Below, piece after piece: positions 4,701-63,989 of a stretch of DNA of 64,000 nucleotides. The stretch is taken from the NCBI GenBank assembly GCA_938028745.1, contig CALIZL010000019.1, forward strand, positions 47,193 through 111,192, in the 5' to 3' direction. Under the pieces are notes generated by a model. The model made no database searches. It had not been told where the DNA came from and was given only the letters and a program-made list of their open reading frames with translations. Origin of the DNA: an uncultured Prevotella sp. GTDB taxonomy: Bacteria > Bacteroidota > Bacteroidia > Bacteroidales > Bacteroidaceae. Each line of letters starts with the position of its first letter. Positions within the stretch are counted from its first letter, which is position 1. A program made the translations under genes and the position numbers.

Positions 4701-5741
4701 GGGGTGTATGGCAGGCAAGTAATTCAGTCCGCCAAAATAAGAACCAGCCCACAAACCACCCTCGCGGTCTTTGTAGAGGCAATAAAGCGGATTATCGGAT
4801 ATGGAGAAAGGGTCTGTGGGATTATAGGTAAAGTGTTGGGTGGCGTGGGTATCTAGGTTGTAAACCAGCATGCCTTGCTCGGTTGCCGCCCATATCTCAC
4901 GATGACTTAGTATAAGGTTACGCACGAAAAGTTCCTTTCCTTCGATACTGGTTACTAGGGGCTCGAAACTGTGGCGTGCAGCATCTATAAGCGAAAGTCC
5001 TTGTCGGTCGGTGCCAATGGCGTAGCGCCCGTTGCCCAAGGGCAGTATGGCCGAAACAATGTTTCCTGCAAAGGGCGTTTGCCCATCTTGTGTGCGAAAG
5101 GGCGTAAGCGTGCGAAAGGCGTGGTCGGTGGTGTATAGTCCGCCTCCGAAAAGGCCGAGCCACACCGCCCCATTGTCGCCAATGGCCATGCCTGCAACGT
5201 TGGGATACCCCTTCAAGCGGAAGTGTGAAAGGTGGTTGCGACGTAAGTCGTAGCAGAAAACTCCCTGTTCGTTAGCCGTGATGTATATCTTATCGCCATG
5301 ACCTTTTATCACGTTCACCATGTTGGTGATGCTCACACCGTCGGCACTTCGTTTGTCGAAACGGCTGAAAGAGTCGGTCAATGGACTGTAAATCCACACG
5401 CCACAATCAGTTCCCACCCATATTCGGCCGTTCGCGTCTTCAAAAAGCGCGTTGATATAGCTACTGCCTAGGCTATGTCCGTCGGGATAGCTGTAATACC
5501 ATTTAAATAAGGTGCCGTCGTAACGGTTTAGTCCTGATTTCGTTCCAATCCACATCAGGCCTGTTCGGTCTTGCAAAATGGCGAGCACGGTGCTTTGCGA
5601 CAGTCCCGACTCCACGCCGATATGCCTGAACAGGATGTTGCTCCTGCCTGTCATGCCGACAAGCAGAAGCAACGCTGCTATCATCAATCTTATTCTCCTC
5701 ATTTGCATTAGTTTGTTGCGTAAAGGTACGAAATTATTCAA
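1749..5741 (-). CDS. Hybrid two-component system sensor histidine kinase / response regulator with an AraC-type HTH (HTCS), the usual regulator type for a polysaccharide utilization locus (PUL)
   Basis: The 1330-aa ORF has an N-terminal signal/TM, periplasmic β-propeller/Y_Y_Y-type repeats, a HisKA motif (FFTNVAHEIRTPLTLI), an HATPase region, a receiver domain (LLLVEDNVQMLEY...VTDVMMEPMDG) and a C-terminal AraC HTH (YNVGFSSPSYFTKCF). Its stop (TGA at 1749-1751) overlaps the ATG of the downstream GH43-mutarotase gene (ATGA). Confidence 0.9.
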   Translation of the reverse strand: MNNFVPLRNKLMQMRRIRLMIAALLLLVGMTGRSNILFRHIGVESGLSQSTVLAILQDRTGLMWIGTKSGLNRYDGTLFKWYYSYPDGHSLGSSYINALFEDANGRIWVGTDCGVWIYSPLTDSFSRFDKRSADGVSITNMVNVIKGHGDKIYITANEQGVFCYDLRRNHLSHFRLKGYPNVAGMAIGDNGAVWLGLFGGGLYTTDHAFRTLTPFRTQDGQTPFAGNIVSAILPLGNGRYAIGTDRQGLSLIDAARHSFEPLVTSIEGKELFVRNLILSHREIWAATEQGMLVYNLDTHATQHFTYNPTDPFSISDNPLYCLYKDREGGLWAGSYFGGLNYLPAIHPVFERFVPQGSGNGLHGRRVREMVMDKQGRIWIGTEDGGLNCMEPDSETFSHIAASNAFPNVHGLCVDGNELWVGTFASGLKVIDTRTHQVVKSFKADGRLGSLHDNTIFSIARSPQGVMYLGTIRGLCTYDANTQSFVYDKAVPPVLINDVSFDSHGNLWLATQTNGVFMRHNGRWTNFKATQSGLTSNKALSIFEDSEGTIWVTTQGGGVCRFNFSTRRFKPLQQGVLNSTSTFFRMEEDGDGVLWLSGYAGFVRYDPHSGDVRTYNNSTMLLDNQFNYNSSLIDKRGRVYFGSLSGIVRFSPSALKKEQRMPQLVATDLYIGNEHVDNFTKGTPLEQNIVFTRKLSLAYNQNSFRLHVVPLSYSRQNWGALEYKLEGFDKSWQPMGADFFMTYANLPAGSYQLIVRMKDQNGKAYPGEYKLDIDVRPFFLFSIWAKLFYVVLLAVLVWLMMRYWNRRAEMRRRQAMEAFETRKEQELYQSKIHFFTNVAHEIRTPLTLILGPLENILGTQKVKDNDVRDDLNIMYENTQRLTDLINQLLDFRKTEKDGLRLNFEYCNLTKLVTDIYNRFRSAMREKNINATLSLQGNNLHGYVDHEGFTKIVSNLINNAVKYCLSYISVTLKTDDTQLFLTVANDGNIIPLDLREKIFEPFFHIDTAEHSTSGTGIGLALARSLAELHNGHLRMGDEADMNVFVLTLPLVQEVPVRLGGNGIGDITPAKTELATTQEAQTKPYTLLLVEDNVQMLEYEKRCLEKEYNIVTATDGEEALLQMERNNVNLVVTDVMMEPMDGMELCRRIKYNVDLSHIPVIILTAVTSERGKMEGMESGADAYIVKPFSMNFLSQTVQNLLRQREEIKKMYATSPFVSASSASISPADAEFLERLKAAVMRNIGNSDFNVDLLAAEMNMSRTSLNRKVRGTLDQSPNNYIRIERLKAAAEMLKTGDKKVNEVCYNVGFSSPSYFTKCFYEQFGILPKEFNKEQ

Positions 5742-5762
5742 ACAAACCGAAAAACGGCTATA

Positions 5763-7757
5763 TTATTTCAAGAAATCTGTTGTACGATTAGGCGAATATA
5801 GTTCCCAAAGGGAGGCAATCGTCCAGCCAGGCGCAAAGATGTCGTTATAAAATCCTTTGCCATTGTGTCCGTAATCCCACGTGGTATGCTGCACCACTTC
5901 GGGGTAGAAACCCTGCTTACCCACGCCGCAAAGGTTGTTGGCAACAGGCAACAGCTGACTAAGCGAAGACGTAATAACATCGTACATGCCCTTAAAACGC
6001 TGCTCGCCGGTTTGCTGAGCCAGCCAGCTAAGGATGTGGGGAAGTTCGAAAACAAACACGTCTATATGGTTATTCTCTACCGAAACATTACCCCATCCGC
6101 GTGTTTTCAGTCCCAGTTCGCCTGTCATCTGCCCAGGCGCAAAAGGCACATCCCACGTGTAATACCACGAGATGGCGAAGTATGCGGCTTGCTTACACAG
6201 GTCGATATAATGCTTTCGCTCCTCGCCCTTAGTAACCATAGCCAGATAATAGGCGGCTGTTACGGCGGCTATGGCGGCCTCCTTGTCTTCGCAATTGGCA
6301 TCGAGCGTAGACGAGAAGTAGTCGCTTTGCGAGATAATGTTCTTCTCCACATATCTTACCGTTCGGCGAGCGGCTTGCAAATAGTTCTTGTTGCCGAAGT
6401 ATTTCCAACCCATCACCAATGCAGAGGTAGCCGAAGGAGTGCTACCTCCCGATGCGTCGACGTCCGTTCCATCAGACTTAAACTTACGAGCGAAGTGACC
6501 ATCATCTTTTATTAAGGCAACGAAGTTATCGAGAATGGTACGTATGCGCCGCTCCCATTCTACGTGGCGACGACCGCGGCTCTTCTCGTATTTTAAATAA
6601 TGTAGTACAGCATACACGGCCTCGCTTTGCTGACGAATGGAATGGATGCTTTCTTTTGGGAAACCGTCGCGGAAGTTTACGAAGTCGTGCAGGTAGCCGC
6701 CTTCCCCAAATCCGTTGCTCAGAAAACTGTCGAAGATGGCTTGTCCCTTGTTAACTAGCTCTTCGTCTTTTGTTTCGACACCGTATTCTATCTCGTTGAA
6801 GGCATTAAGCAACACACGTCCGCAAAAGCCTATCTGCATTTCTGTTTCCGGTAGGCAGTCGTTAACCCGAAGTGAGAGCCCCGAATTGTATTTCAATGGG
6901 TAGCGGTCTACGAACGAATGGCGGAAGTAATCGCTGAGGGCAGCTTTCACTTCTGCACCCGTGTAGGCACTTTTCAAGGGTTGTGGCTGCATGCGGTCGT
7001 AGCTATACTGCCACACTTGCGTAACAAAGCTGCCGAAATCATTGGCTTTATAGCGACGTATGCGCCAACGCAAGGTTTGCTGTTCACCCTTTTCTAGCTT
7101 GGCAAAAGCCGTTACGGGGTCTATGAGCGTTAGTTTGCGGATATATCGTTTGGGAGTTTCCTTATAAGGATAGCCAAACTTTAAGGCCACGGTGTTTGCC
7201 TCGCCGTCGAAACCTGCATAACCCACGGATGTGCGCCCAGGAAGTATTATCTCGCCCGTAGTTAGCTGAACTTGTACGTCGCAAGGTGTGTCTAACACGC
7301 GCAATACAGATATGCCTTGCCCATCATGTGGGTTAAAAGCACTAGTTAAGGGTGTAGACATACGGTCTTCTCTAAAACACCAATGCTTACTGGTTTTGAA
7401 GGAAGGGGCCTCTTGGGGTGAGCGCATGTTGCGATGATACCAGAAACCAGGTATGTAAAACTCAGTCTCGCTAGACGACAAGCCTGTGTTGAGGCTGAGC
7501 TCAAGATGGAAATACACCTTTTCGCGCGCCGAGAGGGTGACGGTCAGCAGTTCGTCGTCGCCGTCTTTTGTAGTAGAAGACACAATGCCTAATGGTCCAT
7601 CGGTCGCCCAATGCTGCCCTTGTTGTTGCAATTGGCGCGTTTCAGACGGATTGCCTGGCGTTTTTAGGCTAAGCGACATCGACAAGCCTTGCGCTTGTAA
7701 CGGACCAATGTTCGCTACAAACGCCCAACCTAGCAGAATGACTTTTATTCGTTTCAT
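5763..7757 (-). CDS. Secreted 664-aa protein of unrecognised family, with an N-terminal β-rich region and a C-terminal α-rich region. Possibly an (α/α)6-toroid glycoside hydrolase/lyase-like enzyme.
   Basis: This is a long ORF with a signal peptide (MKRIKVILLGWAFVANIGPLQAQ). It sits between the HTCS and the IPT/TIG gene in the same orientation. I could not find a diagnostic catalytic motif by eye. Confidence 0.5.
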   Translation of the reverse strand: MKRIKVILLGWAFVANIGPLQAQGLSMSLSLKTPGNPSETRQLQQQGQHWATDGPLGIVSSTTKDGDDELLTVTLSAREKVYFHLELSLNTGLSSSETEFYIPGFWYHRNMRSPQEAPSFKTSKHWCFREDRMSTPLTSAFNPHDGQGISVLRVLDTPCDVQVQLTTGEIILPGRTSVGYAGFDGEANTVALKFGYPYKETPKRYIRKLTLIDPVTAFAKLEKGEQQTLRWRIRRYKANDFGSFVTQVWQYSYDRMQPQPLKSAYTGAEVKAALSDYFRHSFVDRYPLKYNSGLSLRVNDCLPETEMQIGFCGRVLLNAFNEIEYGVETKDEELVNKGQAIFDSFLSNGFGEGGYLHDFVNFRDGFPKESIHSIRQQSEAVYAVLHYLKYEKSRGRRHVEWERRIRTILDNFVALIKDDGHFARKFKSDGTDVDASGGSTPSATSALVMGWKYFGNKNYLQAARRTVRYVEKNIISQSDYFSSTLDANCEDKEAAIAAVTAAYYLAMVTKGEERKHYIDLCKQAAYFAISWYYTWDVPFAPGQMTGELGLKTRGWGNVSVENNHIDVFVFELPHILSWLAQQTGEQRFKGMYDVITSSLSQLLPVANNLCGVGKQGFYPEVVQHTTWDYGHNGKGFYNDIFAPGWTIASLWELYSPNRTTDFLK

Positions 7758-12044: not shown

Positions 12045-12129
12045 AAATAGGGGTTATCAACTTTTAGTTACATTGAAATCTTCGTGAGTTGGAGGGTTGG
12101 TGAGTTGGTGAACTCAAAACCTCATACAC

Positions 12130-17999: not shown

Positions 18000-19190
18000 C
18001 CATTTTTATAACAGAGAAAGAGGGAAAGGTGAAAAGGTGAAAGGGTGAAAAGGTGAAAAGGTGAAAAGGTGAAAAAATGGCTGCGCCCGCTGATGAACGA
18101 GTAGGGCTAGTATAATCAGGAAACCTAGTGATTCTAGGAGAACTAGAATAACTAGGAGAACTAGAATAACTAGAAAAACTAGAAAAACTAGAATAACTAG
18201 AAACCCCAAAGAACTAGCCCAAAAACTAGAAGATCTAAAAGAACTAGTACATCTAAACTGGCTAGCCACCTTCAGCTTACTAAGCCAAATGCTTATTAAC
18301 TAATTAACTGGCAAACCCGTAAAGTTCTCGCCCCACACCTCATCTTTTGTAATATTTTAAGCATAAATTTTAACATTATGAGTGCCCTTGCAATCCACCA
18401 ATCGCCCGCTCGACCGCAAAAAAACGATTCTCGCGAAGGTTTGTTATGATGCAAAAAGGGCTAGTATGTAAATGCAAGCAAAATGAATACGCATTGCATA
18501 AAACCGCAATCGGTACCAGATTTAGGCCTGTTTGCAGCTAGATGGAGTGCATTTTGGTGCTAAACGCATTGCATTTTGGTGCTAATCGCACTGCATTTTG
18601 GTGCTAAACGCACTGCATTTTGGTGCTAAACGCACTGCATTTTGGTGCTAAATGCAAGGCGTTTTGGTGCTAAACGCAAGGCAAAATGCTGCTAAACGCG
18701 AGATGAAAAGCATAAAAATGCACATCTAAGAGGTGGACAAAACCCTTCCGAACCATTAAAAACATGGTTCAAAAGGGGCAAAACATATATCAAAAAGTGG
18801 GGTTTTAGCGGCTAAAAGCAGAGAATGGAGCACAAAAAAACTACGAGCCGGTAACCAACTAGAAAGGCAAAATGATACTAAATGCAGATGATTTTCTTAA
18901 AAGAGGACAAGAAGAAGAGTGGGTAAGGCTGCAATTTCTTGCTAAAAGCATGTGTTTTGGCCATTATTTTTGCTAGAATGGATTGGCCTGCAGTGTGTGT
19001 TTTGTAAATTTTTTAGTAGAATTGTGAGTTGATAAGTTTATGAGTTGATAAGTTTATGAGTTGATAAGTTTATGAGTTGATAAGTTTGTGAGTTTATGAG
19101 TTTGTGAGTTTGTAAGTTGATAAGTTTGTGAGTTGATAAGTTTGTGAGTTGATAAGTTTGTGAGTTCATCAGCCGATGGATTATACTGAT
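18000..19190. repeat. Composite intergenic repeat element, copy 1. Order: (GGTGAAAAG)n 18021-18076; (AACTAGAA-like 8-mer)n 18121-18270; conserved core A; (GCATTTTGGTGCTAAACGCACT 22-mer)n about 18548-18700; conserved core B; (GAGTTGATAAGTTTGT 16-mer / GAGTTTGT 8-mer)n 19015-19185.
   Basis: Tandem periodicity is read directly from the sequence. Cores A and B recur at 34590-35375 and, inverted, at 50566-51230. Confidence 0.85.
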
Positions 19191-27364: not shown

Positions 27365-27990
27365 CGTTCCTAGTTGCCTAAACACATTTAGGCGTGTCTT
27401 ATCAACCGCATGCCTCAACACAGACCCAATCTGTTAAGGCAGGTTCTAAAGATAACCTCCACAGGATTTTTAGGCATTACTTAAACCCAAATCGGCCGTT
27501 AGAGCCTGTGCAGATTTTGTGTATTGTTGAGCATCTTACCTGTTTTATTCTCTTGACGTAGCCCGCTACGCCTTCAAGAATAAGACAGGCAATATGCCGA
27601 CAAGCATAAGAAAGATGAATGGGAAGCGATGGAAACAACCTAAAAATATTTGATAAGCAACCTAACAACAGATTGGGGTTAAATCTTTCTTAACCTTCCA
27701 ACTCTCTTAAAAATAAAATGGTTGATTGTTGTTATAGTAGTAGTCAGAAAGCCATGCTTTATCTCTCAATGGGATGTAAGCATGGCTTTCCCTTGTCACC
27801 CCCTAATCTTCCACTGAGCCCAGAATAGTGCGAAATTTGAAGATTCTTAGCATCCATCTTAAACGAGCAAACGCCCACCCCATTATCGAGTGAGCGTTTG
27901 TTTGACTTTCGCTTAGCTGGGCAACAATAGGCAAAGATGCCCGTTTGTGCCCATGCGTTACTTGTTTTTTCCCCTAAGAAAGGGAAAAGT

Positions 27991-28390
27991 TGTGGAGCTG
28001 GTGGGATTCGAACCCACGTCCAAACAGGGAAACCATACGCTTTCTACACGCTTATTCCAGCCTTCGGTTTTCGTGCATTGGCAAGACCTGGACCACCAAC
28101 CAATGCCTTATCCCCTAAAATTTCATTCGGCGAGCGGGGCCACGCCAAACTATTTCCGATTTCTCTGCACCGCTATATCAGCTGGCTTCGGAACAACAGC
28201 CTCTGAGCGATGTCTCGTTCCATCACCTAGTGACGGAATAAAGCCCAAAACCTACTATGCTTCGGTTAGGCAGCGAGAGCGTAATTTCTTTCGCCAATTA
28301 AATTGTCGATAACTGGGATTATGGAGCCAGCCACCTACGCTCCGCGTGCTTACATACCATTTCATCCCGCTGTCAAATCCAGTCAACCCC
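27991..28390 (-). ncRNA. ssrA: tmRNA (ssrA)
   Basis: The minus-strand 5' end is GGGGTTGACTGGATTTGACAGCGGG (tRNA-like acceptor/D region). The tag-peptide reading frame ...GCGAAAGAAATTACGCTCTCGCTGCCTAA encodes GENNYALAA-stop, the Bacteroidetes-type tag. The 3' end is GGACGTGGGTTCGAATCCCACCAGCTCCAC (T-arm plus acceptor), with CCA not encoded. Confidence 0.85.
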
Positions 28391-33300: not shown

Positions 33301-34374
33301 TTACTCACTTCTTATTTCTTTTGTTTTCTGTCGTGGTTCCAAGCCAAGGTCTTCCCTGATAAAGCGCAACTTCATCAACAACGTTTCCATCTCTTCTACC
33401 GATAGCTGGTGCGTGTTATGCGAGTTGTAATCCTCTGAAACGGATATGGCCTCGTTGCCTTCGGTAAAAAACTTATCGTAGTTCAAGTCGCGCGTATCAA
33501 CGGGAATGCGGAAGTATCTGCCCATGTCTACCGCCCTAACCATCTCTTCGCGTGTAACCAACGTTTCTGAAAGCTTTTCGCCATGACGTGTGCCAATAAC
33601 CTTAATGGGTGTTTGCAGATACTTAGGGTCTACCTTTGCATATACCTTTCTTAGTGCATGCGCAAGCACGTCAAGGGTTGCCGCAGGTGCTTTTTGCACA
33701 AAGAGGTCGCCATTCTTGGCATTGGTAAAGGCATAAATAACCAAGTCTACGGCATCGTCTAGGGTCATCATAAAGCGCGTCATATTCGGGTCGGTAATGG
33801 TAATGGGGTTTCCTGCAACCATCTGTTCTACCCAAAGCGGTATCACCGACCCCCTGCTGGCCATCACATTGCCATATCTTGTGCAGCAAACCGTGGTTTT
33901 AGTGTTTTCGCCCAACTCCCTACCCTTAGCACAAACAACCTTTTCCATCAGTGCTTTGCTCATGCCCATAGCATTGACGGGATAGGCCGCCTTATCGGTA
34001 GACAGCACCACAACCCTACTAACGCCATGCTCTATGGCCGAAAGCAGCACGTTGTTTGTACCTAGTATATTGGTATGAACGGCCTCTATGGGAAAGAACT
34101 CGCACGAAGGAACTTGTTTTAGTGCGGCCGCACTATACACATAATCCACCCCTTGCATGGCAACATCAACGCTCTGCTTGTCGCGAACGTTACCAATATA
34201 GTATTTCACTTTGGGATTTTGCAGGGTGTGTCGCATGTCGTCTTGCTTTTTTTCATCGCGCGAGAAGATGCGTATTTCCTTTATGTCAGAGTCTAGGAAC
34301 CTGCGTAGAACGGCGTTTCCAAACGAACCCGTGCCACCAGTTATCAGTAAGGTTTTATCTTTAAATACAGACAT
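33301..34374 (-). CDS. UDP-GlcNAc 4,6-dehydratase/5-epimerase (FnlA/CapE/WbvB family)
   Basis: The true start is the internal MSVFKDKTLLITGGTGSFGNAVLRRFL (ATG at 34372-34374). The track ORF 33301-34893 has a spurious 173-aa N-terminal extension. A CapE-type extended SDR motif, AAALKQVP, is present. Confidence 0.85.
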   Translation of the reverse strand: MSVFKDKTLLITGGTGSFGNAVLRRFLDSDIKEIRIFSRDEKKQDDMRHTLQNPKVKYYIGNVRDKQSVDVAMQGVDYVYSAAALKQVPSCEFFPIEAVHTNILGTNNVLLSAIEHGVSRVVVLSTDKAAYPVNAMGMSKALMEKVVCAKGRELGENTKTTVCCTRYGNVMASRGSVIPLWVEQMVAGNPITITDPNMTRFMMTLDDAVDLVIYAFTNAKNGDLFVQKAPAATLDVLAHALRKVYAKVDPKYLQTPIKVIGTRHGEKLSETLVTREEMVRAVDMGRYFRIPVDTRDLNYDKFFTEGNEAISVSEDYNSHNTHQLSVEEMETLLMKLRFIREDLGLEPRQKTKEIRSE

Positions 34375-34589
34375 AATACATATTATATATATACTTATAT
34401 TGAAGTCGTCTTGCCTTTTTTGTTTCTTTAAATTAAGAGGGGGGCTATCTCTGTGTTGCGAAAAAACGAGATACTCTCCCCTTTCATGTACAAAGTTCTT
34501 GACAAAGATACGATAAAAATTGAAAAATACACCATTTATACGTGGTAAAACGTGGATATACCCCAAAAACAGAGGCAAACTTATAAATC

Positions 34590-35375
34590 GACTCACGCAC
34601 AAACTCACCAAGTAGCCAACACATAAACCTACCAACACACCCACTCCTTCACTCACCAGAGTGCCGCATTTTGTCTTATTTTCGGCATTAATTTTAACAT
34701 TGTGAGTGCCTTTGTAATCCACCAATCGTCCATTCGACCGCAAAAAATCGATTCTCGCGAAGGTTTGTTTAGGTGCTAAAAGAAGATGGTTGTTAATGCA
34801 TGCAAAATGAATGTACATTGCATAAAACTGCAATTTGCACCTACTTTTGGGCTGTTTACAGCAAAATGTTGTGCAATATGCTGCAAAACGCACTGCATTT
34901 TGGTGCTAAACGCAAGCCATTTTGGTGCAAAACGCAAGCCATTTTGGTGCAAAACACGAGGCATTTTGGTGCTAAACGCAAGGCAAAACGCTGCAAAACG
35001 CAAGGCGAAACGCATAAAAATACGCATCAAAGCGATAGAAAAACCCTTTCGAACCATTAAAAACAGGGCTCAAAAGGGGTAAAACATACATCAAAAAGTG
35101 GGGTTTTAGCGGCTAAAAGCAGGAAATTTGGGGTGAGAAAAAGACGAATCAGCAACCAAATAGAAAGGTAAAATGCAGCTAAATGCGGACAATTTTCTCG
35201 AAAGAAGACAAAATGAGGAAGGCATAAGGCCGCAATTTCTTGCTAAAAGCATACATTTTGGCCATTATTTTCGCTAGAAGGGGTTGGTCAGAAGTGTGCG
35301 TTTTGTAAAGTTTATGGTAAGTTTGTGAGTTGTTAAGTTTGTGAGGTTGTGAGCTTAGAAGTTGATGGGTTGATG
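34590..35375. repeat. Composite intergenic repeat element, copy 2. It has core A, a 22-mer array at 34893-35010, core B and degenerate GAGTTNNT 8-mers, but no 9-mer array. It is inserted inside the polysaccharide locus between fnlA and the downstream GT genes.
   Basis: It is about 85-90% identical to the copy 1 cores, for example aattttaacattgtgagtgcctttgtaatccaccaatcg...cgattctcgcgaaggtttg and ccattaaaaaca...gtggggttttagcggctaaaagcag. Confidence 0.85.
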
Positions 35376-49712: not shown

Positions 49713-49794
49713 CCATCACCACACCCTTTTTCACGTTCTTTTGAAAGTTGGCAGCTTTTGTTTCCAACGTTCAAAAGAACGTTTTTTGTTGAAT

Positions 49795-51611
49795 GAATTA
49801 GTGAGTTCATGAGTTAGAGAGTTAGTGAGTTCATGAGTCTATGAGTTTGTGAGTTTGTGAGTTTGTGAGTTCATGAGTTCATGAGTTAGTGAGTTTATGA
49901 GTTGGTGAGTTAGTTAGTTCATGAGTCTATGAGTCTATGAGTTGGTGAGTTCATGAGTTGGTGAGTTCATGAGTTTGTGAGTTCATGAGTTTGTGAGTTT
50001 GTGAGTTCATGAGTTCATGAGTTTGTGAGTTTGTGAGTTTGTGAGTTTGTGAGTTTGTGAGTTCATGAGTTAGTGAGTTAGTGAGTTAGTGAGTTAGTGA
50101 GTTAGTGAGTTAGTGAGTTCATGAGTTAGTGAGTTTATGAGTTCATGAGTTGGTGAGTTAGTGGGTGCATGAGTTCATGAGTTGGTGAGTCCATGAGTTT
50201 GTGAGTTCATGAGTTCATGAGTTAGTGAGTTGATGAATTTATGGGTTTGTGAGTTCATGGGTTTGTGAGTTCATGAGTTTATGAGTTCATGAGTTTATGA
50301 GTTCATGAGTTAGTGAGTTTATGAGTTGATGAATTTATGGGTTTGTGAGTTCATGAGTTAGTGAGTTTATGAGTTTATGAGTTTATGAGTTTATGAGTTG
50401 GTGAGTTGGTGAGTTGATGAGTTGATGAATTTATGGGTTTGTGAGTTCATGAGTTCATGAGTTCATGAGTTGGTGAGTTCATGAGTTAGTGAGTTTATGA
50501 GTTTATGAGTTGGTGAGTTCATGAGTTGGTGAGTTGGTAGTTCATAAGTTCATGAGTCTATAAGTTAAAAAACACCACAAACTTTACAAAACGCGCACTA
50601 TTGGCCAACCCCTTCTAGCGAAAATAATGGCCAGAATGTGGGCTTTTAGCAAGAAATTGCAGCCTTACGCGCCCCTCCTTTTGTCTCCTTTTAAGAAAAT
50701 TGTCTGCATTTAGCACCATTCAGCCTTTCTAGTTTCTTGCCGATTCGTCTTTTTCTCAACCCCAAATTCCTGCTTTTAGCCGCTAAAACCCCACTTTTTT
50801 ATGTATGTTTTGCCCCTTTTGAACCCCTTTGTTAATGGTTCGAAAGGGTTTTGCCTACCTCTTCGATGTGTATTTTTATGCGTTCCGCCTTGCGTTTTGC
50901 AGCATTTCACCTTGCATTTAGCACCAAAACGGCTTGCGTTTTGCACCAAAATAGCCTGCATTTTGTAGCAAAATAGCCTGCGTTTTACACCAAAATGCAG
51001 TGCGTTTTGCAGCATATTGCACTGTTTTTTGCAGCAAATAGCCCAAAAGGTGGTGCAAATTGCAGTTTTATGCAATGCAAATTCATATTTCCTGCATTAA
51101 CAATCATCCCCTTTTAGCATCAAAACCAACTTTCGCGAGAATCGTTATTTTGCGGTCGAGTGGGCGATTGGTGGATTGCAAGGGCACTCACACTGTTAAA
51201 ATTTGCGCCGAAAATATTACAAACTAAATCATTGATAAGTTGACGAGTTGACAAGTTAACGAATTAACGAGATAACAAGATAACAAGATAACGAGATAAT
51301 GAGATAACAAGATAACGAGACAACAAGATAACGAGACAACGAGATAACGAGATAACGAGATAACAAGATAACAAGATAACGAGATAATGAGAGAACAAGA
51401 GAACAAGATAACGAGAGAACGAGAGAACGAGAGAACGAGATAACAAGTTAATAGGCGCAGCCATTTTTTCACCTTTTCACCCTTTCACCTTTAAAAGCCA
51501 TTTTTTCACCTTTTCACCTTTTCACCCTTTCACCTTTTCACCCTTTCACCTTTTCACCCTTTCACCTTTTCACCCTTTCACCTTTAAAAGCCCTTTCACC
51601 TTTAAAAGCCA
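49795..51611. repeat. Composite intergenic repeat element, copy 3, the largest and in inverted orientation. Order: ~97-unit (GAGTTNNT)n array 49795-50565; core B and core A inverted, with the 22-mer array between them, 50566-51230; (GATAACGA/GTTGACGA-like 8-mer)n 51231-51455; (CCTTTTCAC)n 51466-51611. The last array abuts the stop codon of the lipoprotein gene at 51612.
   Basis: The cores are about 85-90% identical to the reverse complement of copies 1 and 2. The tandem arrays are read directly from the sequence. Confidence 0.9.
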
Positions 51612-53990: not shown

Positions 53991-54789
53991 AACTGGGGTT
54001 AGGTAATTGGTTGTTTCAAACGCGGTGGAGAGGGTAAAGGCCACTTGTAATTACGCCATGTAGTGACAGAAAATACGGCTCTTAGTGCTATACGTACGAT
54101 GCACTTAACATCTCCCATCCATGCAAAGATAATATATTTCTTTGTTTTTTACGTTTCAAATCCACATTCTTTTTGTCATCAAGGTATAATGATTGTCCGA
54201 TACGCCGTGTATTAATGCTGCTTAGCATGTCTTCATGCGCTTTGCCAACAGCGTATGTTTAAATGTTATTTGTATTACAAATTGTTGCTGTCTCGCTAAA
54301 AGGTTTGAAACAGCAAATGTGGTGTTCAGGTTGCCGACAAATAGAAAAATGGTTTCACCTCCCACCAAAAGCTGACCCCTCTCTGGTCTTCATAAGCGCG
54401 ATATGGCGGACTGCCGATTGGGGTTAAAGGTGCAACAGGGTGAAACGTGAACGCCATACGCGCCTCGTAGTCCTATATCATTACGTCAGTAAAGGCTTAA
54501 AATTGTTCGCATCATTGCGCCCATCCTGTTCAGCCTTATCGCTTGTGCGGGCGCATAGCAGTTGTTCTTATCTCACAAAGTACATATTAACGATTTATTA
54601 AATACGGTAAATACATTTTACAAATCACGTTCTTCGGCCGAACCATTCTAGAAGAAAATAACCGCTAAAAGCCATATAAAATGCGCCCAAACGATAAAAT
54701 TTCGGCATTTTTTGAGTGCTTATCCCCTCCGTTTTTGGCCATTTGCTATGCTTTTGCATTTCTCTTTGAAGAAAAATTCTCCCAAATTT

Positions 54790-55230
54790 GCATCCGCAAC
54801 TACTAGAAAATGGAAGTTAATTGCTAGTTGTTGCAACGCATTTTGCATCAAAACGCATTGCATTTTGCACCAAAACGCACTGCAATATGCACCAAAACGC
54901 AAGGCAAAATGCACCAAAACGCAAGGCAAAATGCAACGAAACGCAAGGTAAAATGCTACAAAATGTAACCAAAACCCACCAGAAACACCATATTATGCGT
55001 TATTTATAGGTATTTTGACCAATTGGAATGAAAAACTGCTTGGTGGCGTTTGGTTGAGCGTTTCATGTCGTTTTGCCTCCCTAATACGTGCTAAAAAGTA
55101 TGTTTTTGTGCCTTATTTCTCGTAAGCACCAATGAGTCAAGTGGTTACAAACTTTAAAAATACGCGCGAAAATCCGCCCAATGCCTGGAAATTTTACGGC
55201 GAGGGCACTCATAATGTTAAATTTTGGTAC
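54790..55230. repeat. Composite repeat element, copy 4 (partial and degenerate). It has AACTAGAA-like units, a 22-mer-like array (GCATTTTGCACCAAAACGCA...) and a core A remnant at 55164-55230.
   Basis: The fragment cgcgcgaaaatccgcccaatgcctggaaattttacggcgagggcactcataatgttaaattttg aligns to core A of copy 3. Confidence 0.6.
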
Positions 55231-55616
55231 AAATGTTTTACAATCTTATGGATGTTATTCAGAGCCATTGCATGACTTTGTTGAGTTTAATCCTTGTGCC
55301 AGTAAAAAAGCACTTACACGGAAGAACTTTTGGGATGAATGATAGTCTGAAAGGGAAACTTACCTTTCGAAAACGAATTCCGCAACGCCTATTGATGAGC
55401 ATTGCGGATAGAGAAACCGAGCCGATTTGAAGTTTAGCGGACAGCAATAATTACAATTAAGCCAAACCTACATCACGTGGCCACCTTCCCAACAGGTCTA
55501 CTACATCATAATCCACTATGTACCACCGCATGGGCACGCGCCCCAATCCTGTAAAATAATATAAAATTAACGCTTTAAATTTGCTTTCACATGCAATATA
55601 ATCGCACAAACAGAGT

Positions 55617-60877: not shown

Positions 60878-61145
60878 TAGAGGAGTTAAGGAGTTAAGGA
60901 GTTAAGCCAAATGCCCGTGAGGCTTTAAGGTTATTTGTTCGTTAGTTAACGAGTAGACAAGTTAACAAGTAGACAAGTAGACAAGTAGACAAGTTAACAA
61001 GTAGACAAGTTAACAAGTAGACAAGTTGACAAGCCAGCAAATAGACGAGATAACGAGATAACAAATTTATATGCGCAGCCATTTTTTCACCTTTTCACCT
61101 TTTCACTCTTTCACCTTTAAAAGCCCTTTCACCTTTAAATAACAA
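60878..61145. repeat. Composite repeat element, copy 5, a short form without cores. Order: (GGAGTTAA)3; (GTAGACAA/GTTAACAA)n; (GATAACGA)2; the conserved GCGCAGCCATTTTTTCACC junction; then (CCTTTTCAC)n running into the SpoIID start codon.
   Basis: The junction sequence gcgcagccattttttcaccttttcac is shared with copies 1 and 3. Confidence 0.85.
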
Positions 61146-61148
61146 CTT

Positions 61149-62477: not shown

Positions 62478-62479
62478 AT

Positions 62480-62650
62480 AGATGTTTAAGGATATGAGTT
62501 GTTGAGGTTGCTGAATTGCTGAGTTGTTGAGTTCGTGAGGTATTGAATTGTAGAACTCAATGTTGTTCACAATAAAACTCACAGACTAAACAACTCACAA
62601 ACTCAGCAACTCACGTACTCAGCAACTCACGAGCTTATAAACTCATAAAC
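62480..62650. repeat. Composite repeat element, copy 6, a short inverted form. GAGTTGNT-type 8-mers run 62495-62560 and their reverse complement (AACTCACA/AACTCAGC) runs 62565-62650. Together they form a long imperfect palindrome.
   Basis: This is read directly: gagttgttgaggttgctgaattgctgagttgttgagttcgtgag ... ctcacaaactcagcaactcacgtactcagcaactcacgag. Confidence 0.75.
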
Positions 62651-62654
62651 TAAC

Positions 62655-63989
62655 ATGACCACAGGCAAAGAAACACCGTGGAGATGGGTGCCATCAATAT
62701 ACTTCGGCACAGGAACAGCACAAGCCGCCATCGCCACACTTGCGCTTTTGCTCTACAAACAACTGGGATTGAGCAACGCAGAGATAACCCTCTATACGGG
62801 GTTGTTGTTTCTGCCGTGGCTGTTACGCCCGCTGTGGTCGCCGTTCTTAGGCCTATTACGCACCCCACGTTGGTGGATTGTGTCCATGCAACTGATGCTT
62901 GGCGTTGCCTTGGGTGGTGTTGCCTTCACCATTCCCACCGCCCATTGGCTGCAAGGTACGTTCGCTTTTCTGGGGCTATTGTCCCTCGCCTTAGCCGTTC
63001 ACGAGACAGAAGCCGACGTGTTTTACCACGATACGGTTATGGGCAGCACGCGTTCGGGCCTTTCTAGCATGCCAAACACATTCCGTTTGCTGGCCTTTAT
63101 CTTCGTTCAAGGTTTCTTGGTGATGGTGGCAGGCAACCTACAACTGCTCTATCGCAATAGCATCAGCCTATCGTGGAGCCTTATTTTCTATTCCGTTGCA
63201 GGCCTTTTCATTCTTTCATGGCTATGGCACCGCACGGCGTTGCCCAGTCCTTATAACGAGTCCATCCACCTTTTAAGGCGGCAACAGCGGCGCGAACAAT
63301 TTGCAGAACGTTGGCAAGAGGTGAAGAAAGACATCTTTTCGCTCTTCGCCCAACATCCACGCCAACAACTTGCAGCCACGTTTTGTTTCACGTTCTGTTT
63401 TTTATTGCCCGAAACACTCACGTCGAAAGTGGCCATGCTCTTTCTTGTAGACTCCAATCACAATGGCGGACTGGGACTGTCGCCACAAGAATTTGGCCTT
63501 ACTTGTGGCACTGTGGGCGTTGTAGGACTTATCGCCGGCAGCTTGTTGGGCAAGGCTATCATTGCCGCAAAAGGCTTACGAACCATCGTTTTGCCCTTAT
63601 CTGTGGCCATTTTACTGCCCAATGCACTATATGTTTTGCTTAGCGAGACCCAGCCAACAAGCCTAGGCATTATTAACCTTTGCATCTTTATCGGACAAAC
63701 GAGCTTAGGTTTGGCCTTAGTTACCTATTGGACGGCTTTGAAAACCATCAGCAAAGCTTTGGGCAACCATTCCGTTTACATCTTCCTTACAGCCGTTTTG
63801 GCGTTGGCCCAAATGGTTCCCGGCATGTTTTCGGGTGCATTTCAAGAGTGGCTTGGCTACAACAACCTCTTCTTAATAGCCCTCGCTTGCGGCGTTCTCT
63901 CGCTAACGGGATGCGTTTGGATAAGGCCCATGTTGCTAAACAAAAGCAAAGCCGATACAGAAAACAACAAAAACATAGACTTCTCTTAA
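62655..63989 (+). CDS. ampG: AmpG-family MFS transporter (muropeptide permease-like)
   Basis: The 444-aa ORF has 12-14 TM segments and an AmpG-like N-terminus (IYFGTGTAQAAIATLALLLYKQLGLSNAEITLYTGLLFLPWLLRPLWSPFLG). Confidence 0.75.
   Translation: MTTGKETPWRWVPSIYFGTGTAQAAIATLALLLYKQLGLSNAEITLYTGLLFLPWLLRPLWSPFLGLLRTPRWWIVSMQLMLGVALGGVAFTIPTAHWLQGTFAFLGLLSLALAVHETEADVFYHDTVMGSTRSGLSSMPNTFRLLAFIFVQGFLVMVAGNLQLLYRNSISLSWSLIFYSVAGLFILSWLWHRTALPSPYNESIHLLRRQQRREQFAERWQEVKKDIFSLFAQHPRQQLAATFCFTFCFLLPETLTSKVAMLFLVDSNHNGGLGLSPQEFGLTCGTVGVVGLIAGSLLGKAIIAAKGLRTIVLPLSVAILLPNALYVLLSETQPTSLGIINLCIFIGQTSLGLALVTYWTALKTISKALGNHSVYIFLTAVLALAQMVPGMFSGAFQEWLGYNNLFLIALACGVLSLTGCVWIRPMLLNKSKADTENNKNIDFS

Follow-up and report, generated by a model that had tools for sequence, protein, structure and literature searches.

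Repeat blocks in the window form a modular non-coding family

We analyzed a stretch of 64,000 nucleotides from an uncultured Prevotella sp. (contig CALIZL010000019.1, positions 47,193 to 111,192; here "the window"), in which blocks of tandem repeats lie between genes at six places, designated c1 to c6. The flanking genes are typical of Bacteroidota and encode, among others, a TIG-domain protein and a SusC-like receptor, capsule functions, glycosyltransferases and a flotillin. An earlier reading of the letters alone (the sequence-only reading) had described the blocks as six modular copies of one element. Indeed, Tandem Repeats Finder (TRF) placed arrays at all of these positions, but only c1, c2 and c3 are full copies, while c4 is degenerate and c5 and c6 are array blocks without a core. 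A full copy consists of a non-coding core of ~650 bp, made up of a leader, a 22-mer array and a tail, and is enclosed by short-period tandem arrays; including the latter, the copies in the window measure 0.8-1.9 kb.

When the c1 interval was compared with the window by blastn, c1 18345-19074 matched c2 34669-35375 with 78% identity over contiguous, non-repetitive sequence, and c1 18346-19012 matched c3 51223-50579 in inverted orientation, likewise with 78% identity. Alignment with MAFFT yielded cores of about 650-730 bp with long invariant blocks. Pairwise identities of the cores amount to 76-81% rather than the 85-90% given before, and a profile built from the three copies recovered the degenerate c4 on the minus strand at about 54612-55244, a larger extent than the previous 54790-55230. 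The 22-mer motif has 19 matches in the window versus 0.38 expected, and the 19-nt junction GCGCAGCCATTTTTTCACC occurs three times exactly versus 0 expected. As both counts are far above expectation, a chance origin is excluded. The main arrays are imperfect (64-95% matches in TRF), and the terminal array of c3 is opposite in orientation to that of c1 relative to the core. The unit GGTGAAAAG, formerly taken for a 9-mer, has a period of 8 and is part of a higher-order repeat of ~43-51 bp, whereas the AACTAGAA block of c1 does have period 9. The remaining descriptive claims held: all copies are intergenic, no open reading frame (ORF) of at least 100 aa lies within the c1 interval, a spurious over-extended ORF being the one that overlaps c2, and column conservation is free of 3-nt periodicity. 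The blocks are thus confirmed as a genuine multi-copy, modular, non-coding family.

The family in other genomes

An exact 21-mer from the core tail (GGGGTTTTAGCGGCTAAAAGC) had no match in the representative genomes of GTDB, this pattern being too specific, and a pattern of two consecutive 22-mer units was used instead. It gave at least 81 matches, and those listed fall into three assemblies, i.e. Prevotella conceptionensis, Hoylesella shahii and a metagenome-assembled genome (MAG) of an uncultured Prevotella. With a profile of the window cores, at least 60 distinct near full-length cores were recognized at these loci, at least 54 of them from P. conceptionensis, which means that the entire leader/22-mer/tail unit is conserved across genera. 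Family statistics given below cover 63 copies from four species, and those on terminal repeats the 60 cores of the relatives. Cores are on average 71.5% identical within P. conceptionensis and 65-70% identical between species, with a maximum of 92.5% for any pair. Despite an overall identity of only ~65-72%, the blocks AATTTTAACA, CGATTCTCGCGAAGGTTTGTTTTG, ACTAGAAAGGCAAAATGGTGCAAAATGCAG and TTTTCGCTAGAA are conserved to at least 95% across the 63 copies. In P. conceptionensis, H. shahii and the MAG, almost all cores are followed by an (GAGTTNNT)n array, which is internal to the right inverted repeat described below. Many cores are preceded by (AACTNGTN)n arrays together with a (GGTGAAAR)n-ATGGCTGCGCC module.

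Assembling arrays with up to 96 units is difficult, and array lengths differ between assemblies, so that one might suspect collapsed or expanded arrays or chimeric joins. We give such an artefact next to no credence: independent assemblies produced by several studies have the same cores at corresponding loci, the family is found in isolate genomes of other genera, and the imperfection of the arrays aids their assembly.

No similarity to the core was found by blastn in phage or plasmid collections, and an origin from phages or plasmids was therefore dismissed; a single stray match to the core came from IMG/VR.

Relatives of the window copies carry IS5-type ends and a transposase remnant

Aligning the left flanks of the relatives' cores revealed a second conserved left module with a sharp outer edge that reads GAAGTCGTCTTGACTTTTAATGTTTCTATAAATTGAGAGG. 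Between this left repeat and the core, the module carries decayed reading frames MYEVLGKDTIKSKILPHLSLAKRGYVSKSCLAEVIQYILYKLKTGCRWQ (MYEVLDKDTIK...LYKLKTGCQW), which have weak matches to PF13340 (a putative IS4/5-family transposase) and to the IS5 family transposase model of NCBIfam, NF033580. Database relatives are short ORFs, many of them with PF13340; those of greater length (130-148 aa) give E-values of 1e-12 to 1e-13 against NF033580. The terminal inverted repeat (TIR), which begins GAAGTCGTCTTGACTTTTAAT, was first seen as a 20-mer and could be extended to ~45-60 bp. The same ~45-60 bp recur in inverted orientation beyond the GAGTT array, on the far side of the cores. At least one inward-facing repeat accompanies 31 of the 60 cores and ten cores have both. 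These repeats are located ~250-400 bp upstream and 130-440 bp downstream of the core, the downstream distance scaling with array length, and the resulting elements are mostly 0.9-1.6 kb long from repeat to repeat (2.0 kb for one pairing). Identical 3-bp flanks (CTT, ATA, AAT) border three of the ten complete pairs versus ~0.16 expected, and five further pairs match at two of the three positions, in what is a small sample with old flanks. Target-site duplications of 3 bp are accordingly likely in the relatives; short duplications of this size fit the IS5 family. At a metagenomic locus (L098), the same ends enclose a transposase with an internal deletion, of which residues 14-105 and 210-257 of a 258-residue model are present. 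Homologues of its C-terminus possess DDE_Tnp_1 domains (PF01609 / PF13586) and bear IS5-family names.

The TIR profile has a single significant match in the window, the left end of c2 (Table 1), situated 250 bp left of the core, and positions 34402-34580 align base for base with the relatives' left repeat, 5' untranslated region (UTR) and orfA start. No inverted repeat was detected by this profile at c1, c3 and c4. The assertion of the sequence-only reading that the blocks are devoid of features of insertion sequences (IS) or MITEs (miniature transposable elements with inverted repeats) consequently fails, given TIRs of ~45 bp and a decayed IS5-family orfA start in the relatives and a left end retained by c2.

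Given these ends and the orfA remnant, the family is best understood as a non-autonomous derivative of an IS5-family IS. We consider it probable that such an element family, residing in Segatella, Prevotella and Hoylesella, is represented in the blocks by old copies that have largely decayed. A complete member comprises the left inverted repeat of ~45 bp (GAAGTCGTCTTGACTTTTAATGTTTCTATAAATTGAGAGG), the IS 5' UTR with a truncated orfA, a cargo of ~650 bp, the GAGTTNNT 8-mer array and the right inverted repeat. The cargo is composed of a leader of ~200 bp, five to seven dyad-symmetric tandem 22-mers and a tail of ~320 bp. In a second type of left end, (GGTGAAAR)n-ATGGCTGCGCC and (AACTNGTN)n arrays replace the inverted repeat and the orfA remnant. 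Within the window, only c2 has kept a recognizable end, c1, c3 and c4 are fossils, and c5 and c6 are array-only remnants. As in MITEs, inverted repeats at both ends and remnants related to an autonomous IS occur in the relatives and a functional transposase is lacking; MITEs are, however, usually smaller than about 600 bp, a size that most complete relatives exceed.

The IS5-type ends could also belong to an unrelated element that inserted beside or around cores which had been dispersed in a different way. Roughly every second core has no detectable inverted repeat and the second left-end type is without an IS remnant, as this explanation would have it. Nevertheless we judge it quite improbable, because the repeats on either side point inward and keep consistent distances, the junction between orfA remnant and core recurs in many copies from two genera, and the inner sequence of the right repeat continues straight into the GAGTT array.

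Comparison with described elements

BrickBuilt (Klein et al. 2015, PMC4596501), which is a MITE/minisatellite of Porphyromonas gingivalis, consists of a leader (at most 285 nt), units of 22-23 nt in tandem without spacers and a tail (at most 318 nt). It is intergenic, is present in 19 copies, many of them partial, has IS5-like inverted repeats and no coding capacity, and is called a MITE though it reaches 991 nt (PMC4596501). Reports of it are limited to P. gingivalis and P. gulae and its copies are highly similar; its regions are transcribed, one of them overlapping a reported small RNA (sRNA; PMC4596501). The window family resembles it in its leader of ~200 bp, its five to seven 22-mers and its tail of ~320 bp, and likewise is intergenic and multi-copy, often lacks its ends and has inverted repeats tied to IS5. 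In contrast, the repeat unit is AGACCATAGTATCCTCTCATATG in BrickBuilt but TGCGTTTTGGTGCTAAATGCAG here, and the ends are a 12-bp GAGACCTTTGCA in BrickBuilt but ~45 bp long here, starting with GAAGTCGTCTTGAC. Moreover, the window family spans at least Segatella, Prevotella and Hoylesella with copies only 65-80% identical, and it adds hypervariable 8-mer arrays between core and ends as well as the orfA remnant. Homology to BrickBuilt was rejected, as unit and ends proved unrelated on direct comparison. To judge from its sequence, the family is a counterpart that works like BrickBuilt and not a member of it.

The family also resembles IS5-family insertion sequences that have a DUF4096 (PF13340) N-terminus and a DDE_Tnp_1 catalytic domain (NCBIfam NF033580): the left-end remnant encodes the N-terminus of such a transposase, and L098 is a deleted IS with the same ends. 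It differs from them in having no functional transposase, the place of the gene being taken by ~650 bp of unrelated non-coding cargo and by arrays. In foldback-type transposons, i.e. eukaryotic FB elements, the ends are built of inverted arrays of short tandem repeats, and c1 and most P. conceptionensis copies have (AACTNGTN)n at their left side and (NACNAGTT)n at their right. This is an analogy only, as hosts and transposases are unrelated; in addition, the arrays are enclosed by inverted repeats that are separate and unique, and the right array of c3 is in direct orientation.

PINSR of P. intermedia (2016, PMC4755523) is a 188-bp intergenic non-coding repeat of unknown function with 177-184 copies, mostly conserved in position between strains. 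It was reported to have no terminal inverted repeats and, by polymerase chain reaction, to be limited to the P. intermedia group (PMC4755523). Although intergenic, non-coding, high-copy and located in Prevotella too, PINSR is set apart from the window family by its description (size, no inverted repeats).

No paper on the family in Prevotella or Segatella was found in the searchable literature; a large automated catalogue of MITEs from Bacteroidota exists and may hold fragments of it (PMC11602168). The earlier view that the blocks are unlike any described element thus stands as far as the family itself is concerned, but an architectural equivalent, BrickBuilt, was already described in another Bacteroidales genus (PMC4596501). 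The family appears to be undescribed in its own right, while its kind, an IS-derived non-autonomous element with a minisatellite, is already known.

Age and strain variation

With a mean identity of 71.5% in P. conceptionensis and pairwise identities of 76-81% in the window, the copies are old. Of ten contigs that encode an identical flotillin, nine have the element at the c3 site, whose counterpart at the c1 site is found in just three of eleven sequences (the window counted) that encode an identical TIG protein. Absence of c1 and c3 from some strains shows that individual copies are dispensable. In strains without c1 (L099 2535-2828, L101, L108), the site is occupied by 293-360 bp of filler with its own short duplicated motif CTACAAGCCTTTTGTAATGAC; TTTTGTAA is found at both core boundaries of the element, too.

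Comparing the arrays between strains, as the sequence-only reading had proposed, revealed a several-fold variation of the flanking arrays at the c3 locus next to a stable core. Core length is 626-641 bp, while the right array ranges from 125 to 793 bp, the inner-left array from 79 to 255 bp and the (GGTGAAAR)n block from 44 to 163 bp. With respect to the flanking genes, the elements have no preferred orientation and all four arrangements occur, including convergent gene pairs. Hence, the element is not an obligate promoter or terminator for its neighbors.

Constraint on the core and a possible host role

Constraint was assessed with seven c3 alleles, i.e. at one locus. Columns conserved in the family were variable in 9.1% of cases, as compared to 22.8% for family-variable columns (Fisher p=6e-5) and 19.4% for four-fold degenerate sites of the adjacent flotillin gene. 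The conserved core blocks of the c3 locus thus have a rate of change about half the neutral one and ~2.5-fold lower than that of the variable columns. The 22-mer unit is dyad-symmetric (GCGTTT-N7-AAACGC), with a phasing of exactly 22 bp. A position weight matrix (PWM) further detected isolated 22-mer-like sites in the leader (consensus position 192) of 50 and in the tail (position 595) of 59 of the 63 copies, and conservation in leader and tail, i.e. outside the array, shows periodicities of ~11-12 and 22-23 bp. Phasing and periodicity would suit a DNA-binding protein for which these are putative sites, a weak lead drawn from sequence patterns. On the minus strand of the element, a hairpin followed by a U-tract (c1 18777->18743) is 86% canonical over the 63 copies versus 76% on the plus strand, a difference to be read against high values in slid-pair controls owing to homopolymer runs. 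The tail hairpin is a possible, predicted one-way terminator. Some acquired host role for the conserved blocks is accordingly possible, e.g. as a 22-bp protein-binding array or as a one-way terminator.

A further explanation takes the blocks for an exapted host element, whose core would be kept as a regulatory or architectural site at the DNA level, the 22-bp sites binding a putative dimeric protein and the tail terminator insulating operons; it is compatible with a transposon origin. The slow evolution of the conserved columns and of the blocks shared by 63 otherwise dissimilar copies would agree with it, as would the phased dyad units, the conserved outlying sites and the strand difference of the terminator-like hairpin. 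It is made rather unlikely by the lack of orientation bias towards flanking genes, by the absence of c1 from eight of eleven and of c3 from one of ten strain sequences, by the high hairpin controls, and by the fact that rate heterogeneity could stem from constraint on a master copy together with gene conversion. Still more doubtful is the extended version in which a domesticated core, a putative binding platform plus one-way terminator, would act as an intergenic insulator while the hypervariable 8-mer arrays would alter spacing and so tune the flanking polysaccharide-utilization and capsule operons differently between strains.

RNA, coding and other identities

The core might instead encode a structured RNA of ~650 nt, or its tail an sRNA, which would make the blocks a multigene family of non-coding RNAs. 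Consensus folds are fairly stable on both strands, the minus-strand hairpin is terminator-like, and BrickBuilt sets a precedent for transcription (PMC4596501). The proposed search of Rfam, however, returned nothing at gathering score over the whole window except the transfer-messenger RNA (tmRNA), and nothing at E<=1 over c2. Structured RNA was rejected for the leader palindrome and the GAACCAT hairpin, in which most variation consists of one-sided changes divided between the strands and compensatory pairs are nearly absent, and for the 22-mer hairpins, in which there are no compensatory changes. The 22-mer varies only at positions 4 (G/A) and 18 (C/T), its two CpG sites, and A co-occurs with C more often than with T (31 vs 13). 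Favoring A-C over A-T looks like decay of CpG to TpG and not like maintenance of a stem. A conserved Bacteroidota promoter (TAnnTTTG/C with optional upstream TTTG; -7/-33) was not found in the core, the best position being shared by 17 of 63 copies; a promoter-like match on the minus strand (TAATTTTCA) is confined to one subfamily that does not include the window copies. Primers for validated S. copri sRNA probes had no match in the window apart from those for tmRNA. Taken together, we attribute little probability to the RNA explanation.

Several other identities were dismissed. A protein-coding gene is at odds with short ORFs that are not conserved between copies and with a period-3 power that ranks 31-120 of 104-326 frequencies. 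Hidden coding capacity fares no better, as stop-free segments of the minus strand are common yet without periodicity, and a small ORF beginning with the ATG of the conserved ATGGCTGCGCC stops after 12 codons in c1, its downstream frame being unconserved. The units are joined head-to-tail without spacers, unlike in a CRISPR array. An iteron-type replication origin would be in line with 22-bp phased repeats, but not with at least 54 copies in one genome, no adjacent rep gene and no similarity to plasmids or phages.

Origin of the family: proposed mechanism and counter-arguments

If the family descends from an IS5-family insertion sequence, a DDE transposase of that family supplied in trans would have moved the element and generated the 3-bp target duplications. 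Most of the transposase gene would have been replaced by the non-coding cargo with its internal minisatellite, and the ends of the element would have decayed after insertion. The short-period arrays would expand and contract, most simply by replication slippage, giving rise to the length differences between strains, and homologous recombination in the flanking genes would swap intergenic alleles.

A number of observations weigh against this origin. Just one of the four window cores and 31 of the 60 relatives' cores have an inverted repeat, leaving 29 with none within reach. Protein searches and contig look-ups yielded no intact autonomous parent IS, as all orfA and orfB homologues that were fetched are truncated or stand alone. 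The signal for target duplications comes from just ten pairs. Neither at c1 nor at c3 is there a clean empty site, the strains without element carrying unrelated filler, and near-identical copies are absent (maximum 92.5%). Mobility is therefore deduced from anatomy and was not observed. The array lengths of the strains derive from short-read assemblies, and the constraint estimate derives from a single locus, where gene conversion from paralogues would mimic the pattern. Recombination is evident, since the element differs by 3-6% between pairs whose four-fold divergence is 0.5%.

Few repeat families have been described from Segatella and Prevotella, which are major bacteria of the human gut and mouth. 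The present one is dense: the 64 kb of the window contain four cores, and one Prevotella genome has at least 54. The family leads to errors in gene calling, such as the CapD-like ORF described below, it creates large length differences between strains beside polysaccharide-utilization and capsule loci, and it will break or distort short-read assemblies. Profiles of the core and the inverted repeat would permit annotators to mask it, and strain markers might be derived from the 8-mer arrays. The difference in rate that separates conserved from variable columns provides a testable hint that parts of an old transposon gained a role.

Coordinates, array modules and neighborhood

The features of the six loci are compiled in Table 1.

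Table 1. Positions of the repeat features at loci c1 to c6 (window coordinates) and the evidence for each.
Locus	Feature	Position	Strand	Evidence
c1	(GGTGAAAR)n block ending in junction AAAATGGCTGCGC	18016..18087	+	TRF period 8 at 18025-18075; exact junction 18068-18086; module also in P. conceptionensis and MAG
c1	inner-left array (AACTAGRAN)n, period 9/18	18134..18246	+	TRF; counterpart of (AACTNGTN)n left of cores in other species
c1	core leader with AATTTTAACA, CGATTCTCGCGAAGGTTTG and one isolated 22-mer-like site	18345..18547	+	blastn, MAFFT, family conservation; PWM match at consensus position 192
c1	22-mer minisatellite, 6.9 units of TGCATTTTGGTGCTAAACGCAC	18548..18699	+	TRF score 220; motif matches
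c1	core tail with minus-strand terminator-like hairpin (18777->18743) and one isolated 22-mer-like site	18700..19012	+	MAFFT, family conservation, motif scan
c1	right array (GAGTTGATAAGTTTGT)n	19022..19166	+	TRF, 16-mer x9.6
c2	left terminal inverted repeat GAAGTCGTCTTGCCTTTTTTGTTTCTTTAAATTAAGAGGGG	34402..34442	+	nhmmer TIR profile E=1.8e-5; alignment to relatives
c2	IS 5' UTR and decayed IS5-family orfA start (ATGTACAAAGTTCTTGACAAAGATACGATAAAA...)	34443..34580	+	alignment with L089, L036, L049 and orfA-bearing L093; orfA family PF13340 / NF033580
c2	core leader	34669..34881	+	blastn, MAFFT, profile
c2	22-mer array, about 6 units	34882..35020	+	TRF; motif matches
c2	core tail	35021..35305	+	blastn, MAFFT
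c2	short right array (GTGAGTTGTTAAGTTT)	35306..35375	+	TRF, 16-mer at 35318-35350; blastn
c3	(GGTGAAAR)n higher-order block and junction	51454..51603	-	TRF, TTTTCACC repeats at 51466-51603; junction 51455-51473
c3	inner-left 8/16/24-mer array (TTATCTYG on element strand)	51238..51451	-	TRF
c3	core leader	51039..51223	-	blastn, MAFFT, profile
c3	22-mer array	50888..51038	-	TRF; minus-strand motif matches
c3	core tail	50579..50887	-	blastn, MAFFT; orthologous in 9/10 strain contigs
c3	right array, about 96 units of TGAGTTTA read on window + strand, inverted versus right array of c1	49793..50566	-	TRF, x95.8 at 49802-50566; orientation
c4	degenerate: leader start, 22-mer array 54837-54986, tail end	54612..55244	-	nhmmer partial matches; TRF, 22-mer at 54844-54986; minus-strand motif matches
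c5	left module without core, (GGTGAAAR)n-junction-(8/16-mer)n, occupying entire intergenic spacer	60878..61148	-	TRF, 60881-61136; junction
c6	inverted pair of 8-mer arrays without core, (TGAGTTGT)7 and (AAACTCAC)10	62478..62654	.	TRF, 62495-62655; folding

The GGTGAAAR block is a higher-order repeat of ~43-51 bp, TTTAAAGGTGAAAGGGTGAAAAGGTGAAAAGATGGCTGCGCC, which is conserved across genera and occurs up to four times in tandem in P. conceptionensis; it was located at 18016-18087, 51454-51603 and 61073-61145 of the window and at L063 3760-3920, L090 830-980 and L084 370-575. The left 8-mer unit AACTCGTC is one base off the terminus of the inverted repeat, AAGTCGTC, and the right arrays are its inverse (ends of L011-L091; window 18134-18246 and 19022-19166). 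At the other side, the inner edge of the right inverted repeat merges directly into the GAGTT array. The flanking arrays may have grown out of end-proximal sequence.

Locus c6 fills the whole spacer between two co-directional genes and folds as a hairpin of 177 nt (dG -63 kcal/mol, z -6.9); it could be an internal attenuator or an RNA-processing site. A small (GTGAGTTG)x3.5 array in another intergenic spacer (window 12084-12111) suggests that array-only remnants are scattered beyond the six loci.

The flotillin gene has an intrinsic terminator of its own (AACGTTCTTTTGAA...TTCAAAAGAACGTTTTTT) at 49733-49786, directly before the c3 array, and a hairpin GGCCAAGGTT...AACCTTGGCC precedes c1, so that the elements are positioned just outside existing terminators. 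The CapD-like ORF at 33301-34893 (-) is over-extended by ~165 codons into c2, its Pfam domain starting only at residue 182, and automatic gene calling errs in the same way at L109, where a gene at 4807-6324 overlaps the core.

A second intergenic repeat of ~200 bp with an internal palindrome adjoins the tmRNA gene (window 27481-27683; L010 7632-7833). This repeat shares 77% identity with the filler found in place of c3 in one strain contig and probably represents a second repeat family. Published primers for the tmRNA of S. copri HDD04 match the tmRNA gene with one to three mismatches, which assigns the window to the Segatella copri complex, its host probably being a Segatella near to S. copri HDD04 though distinct from it. 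The tmRNA gene itself is located at 27990-28390 (-) and specifies the tag peptide GERNYALAA.

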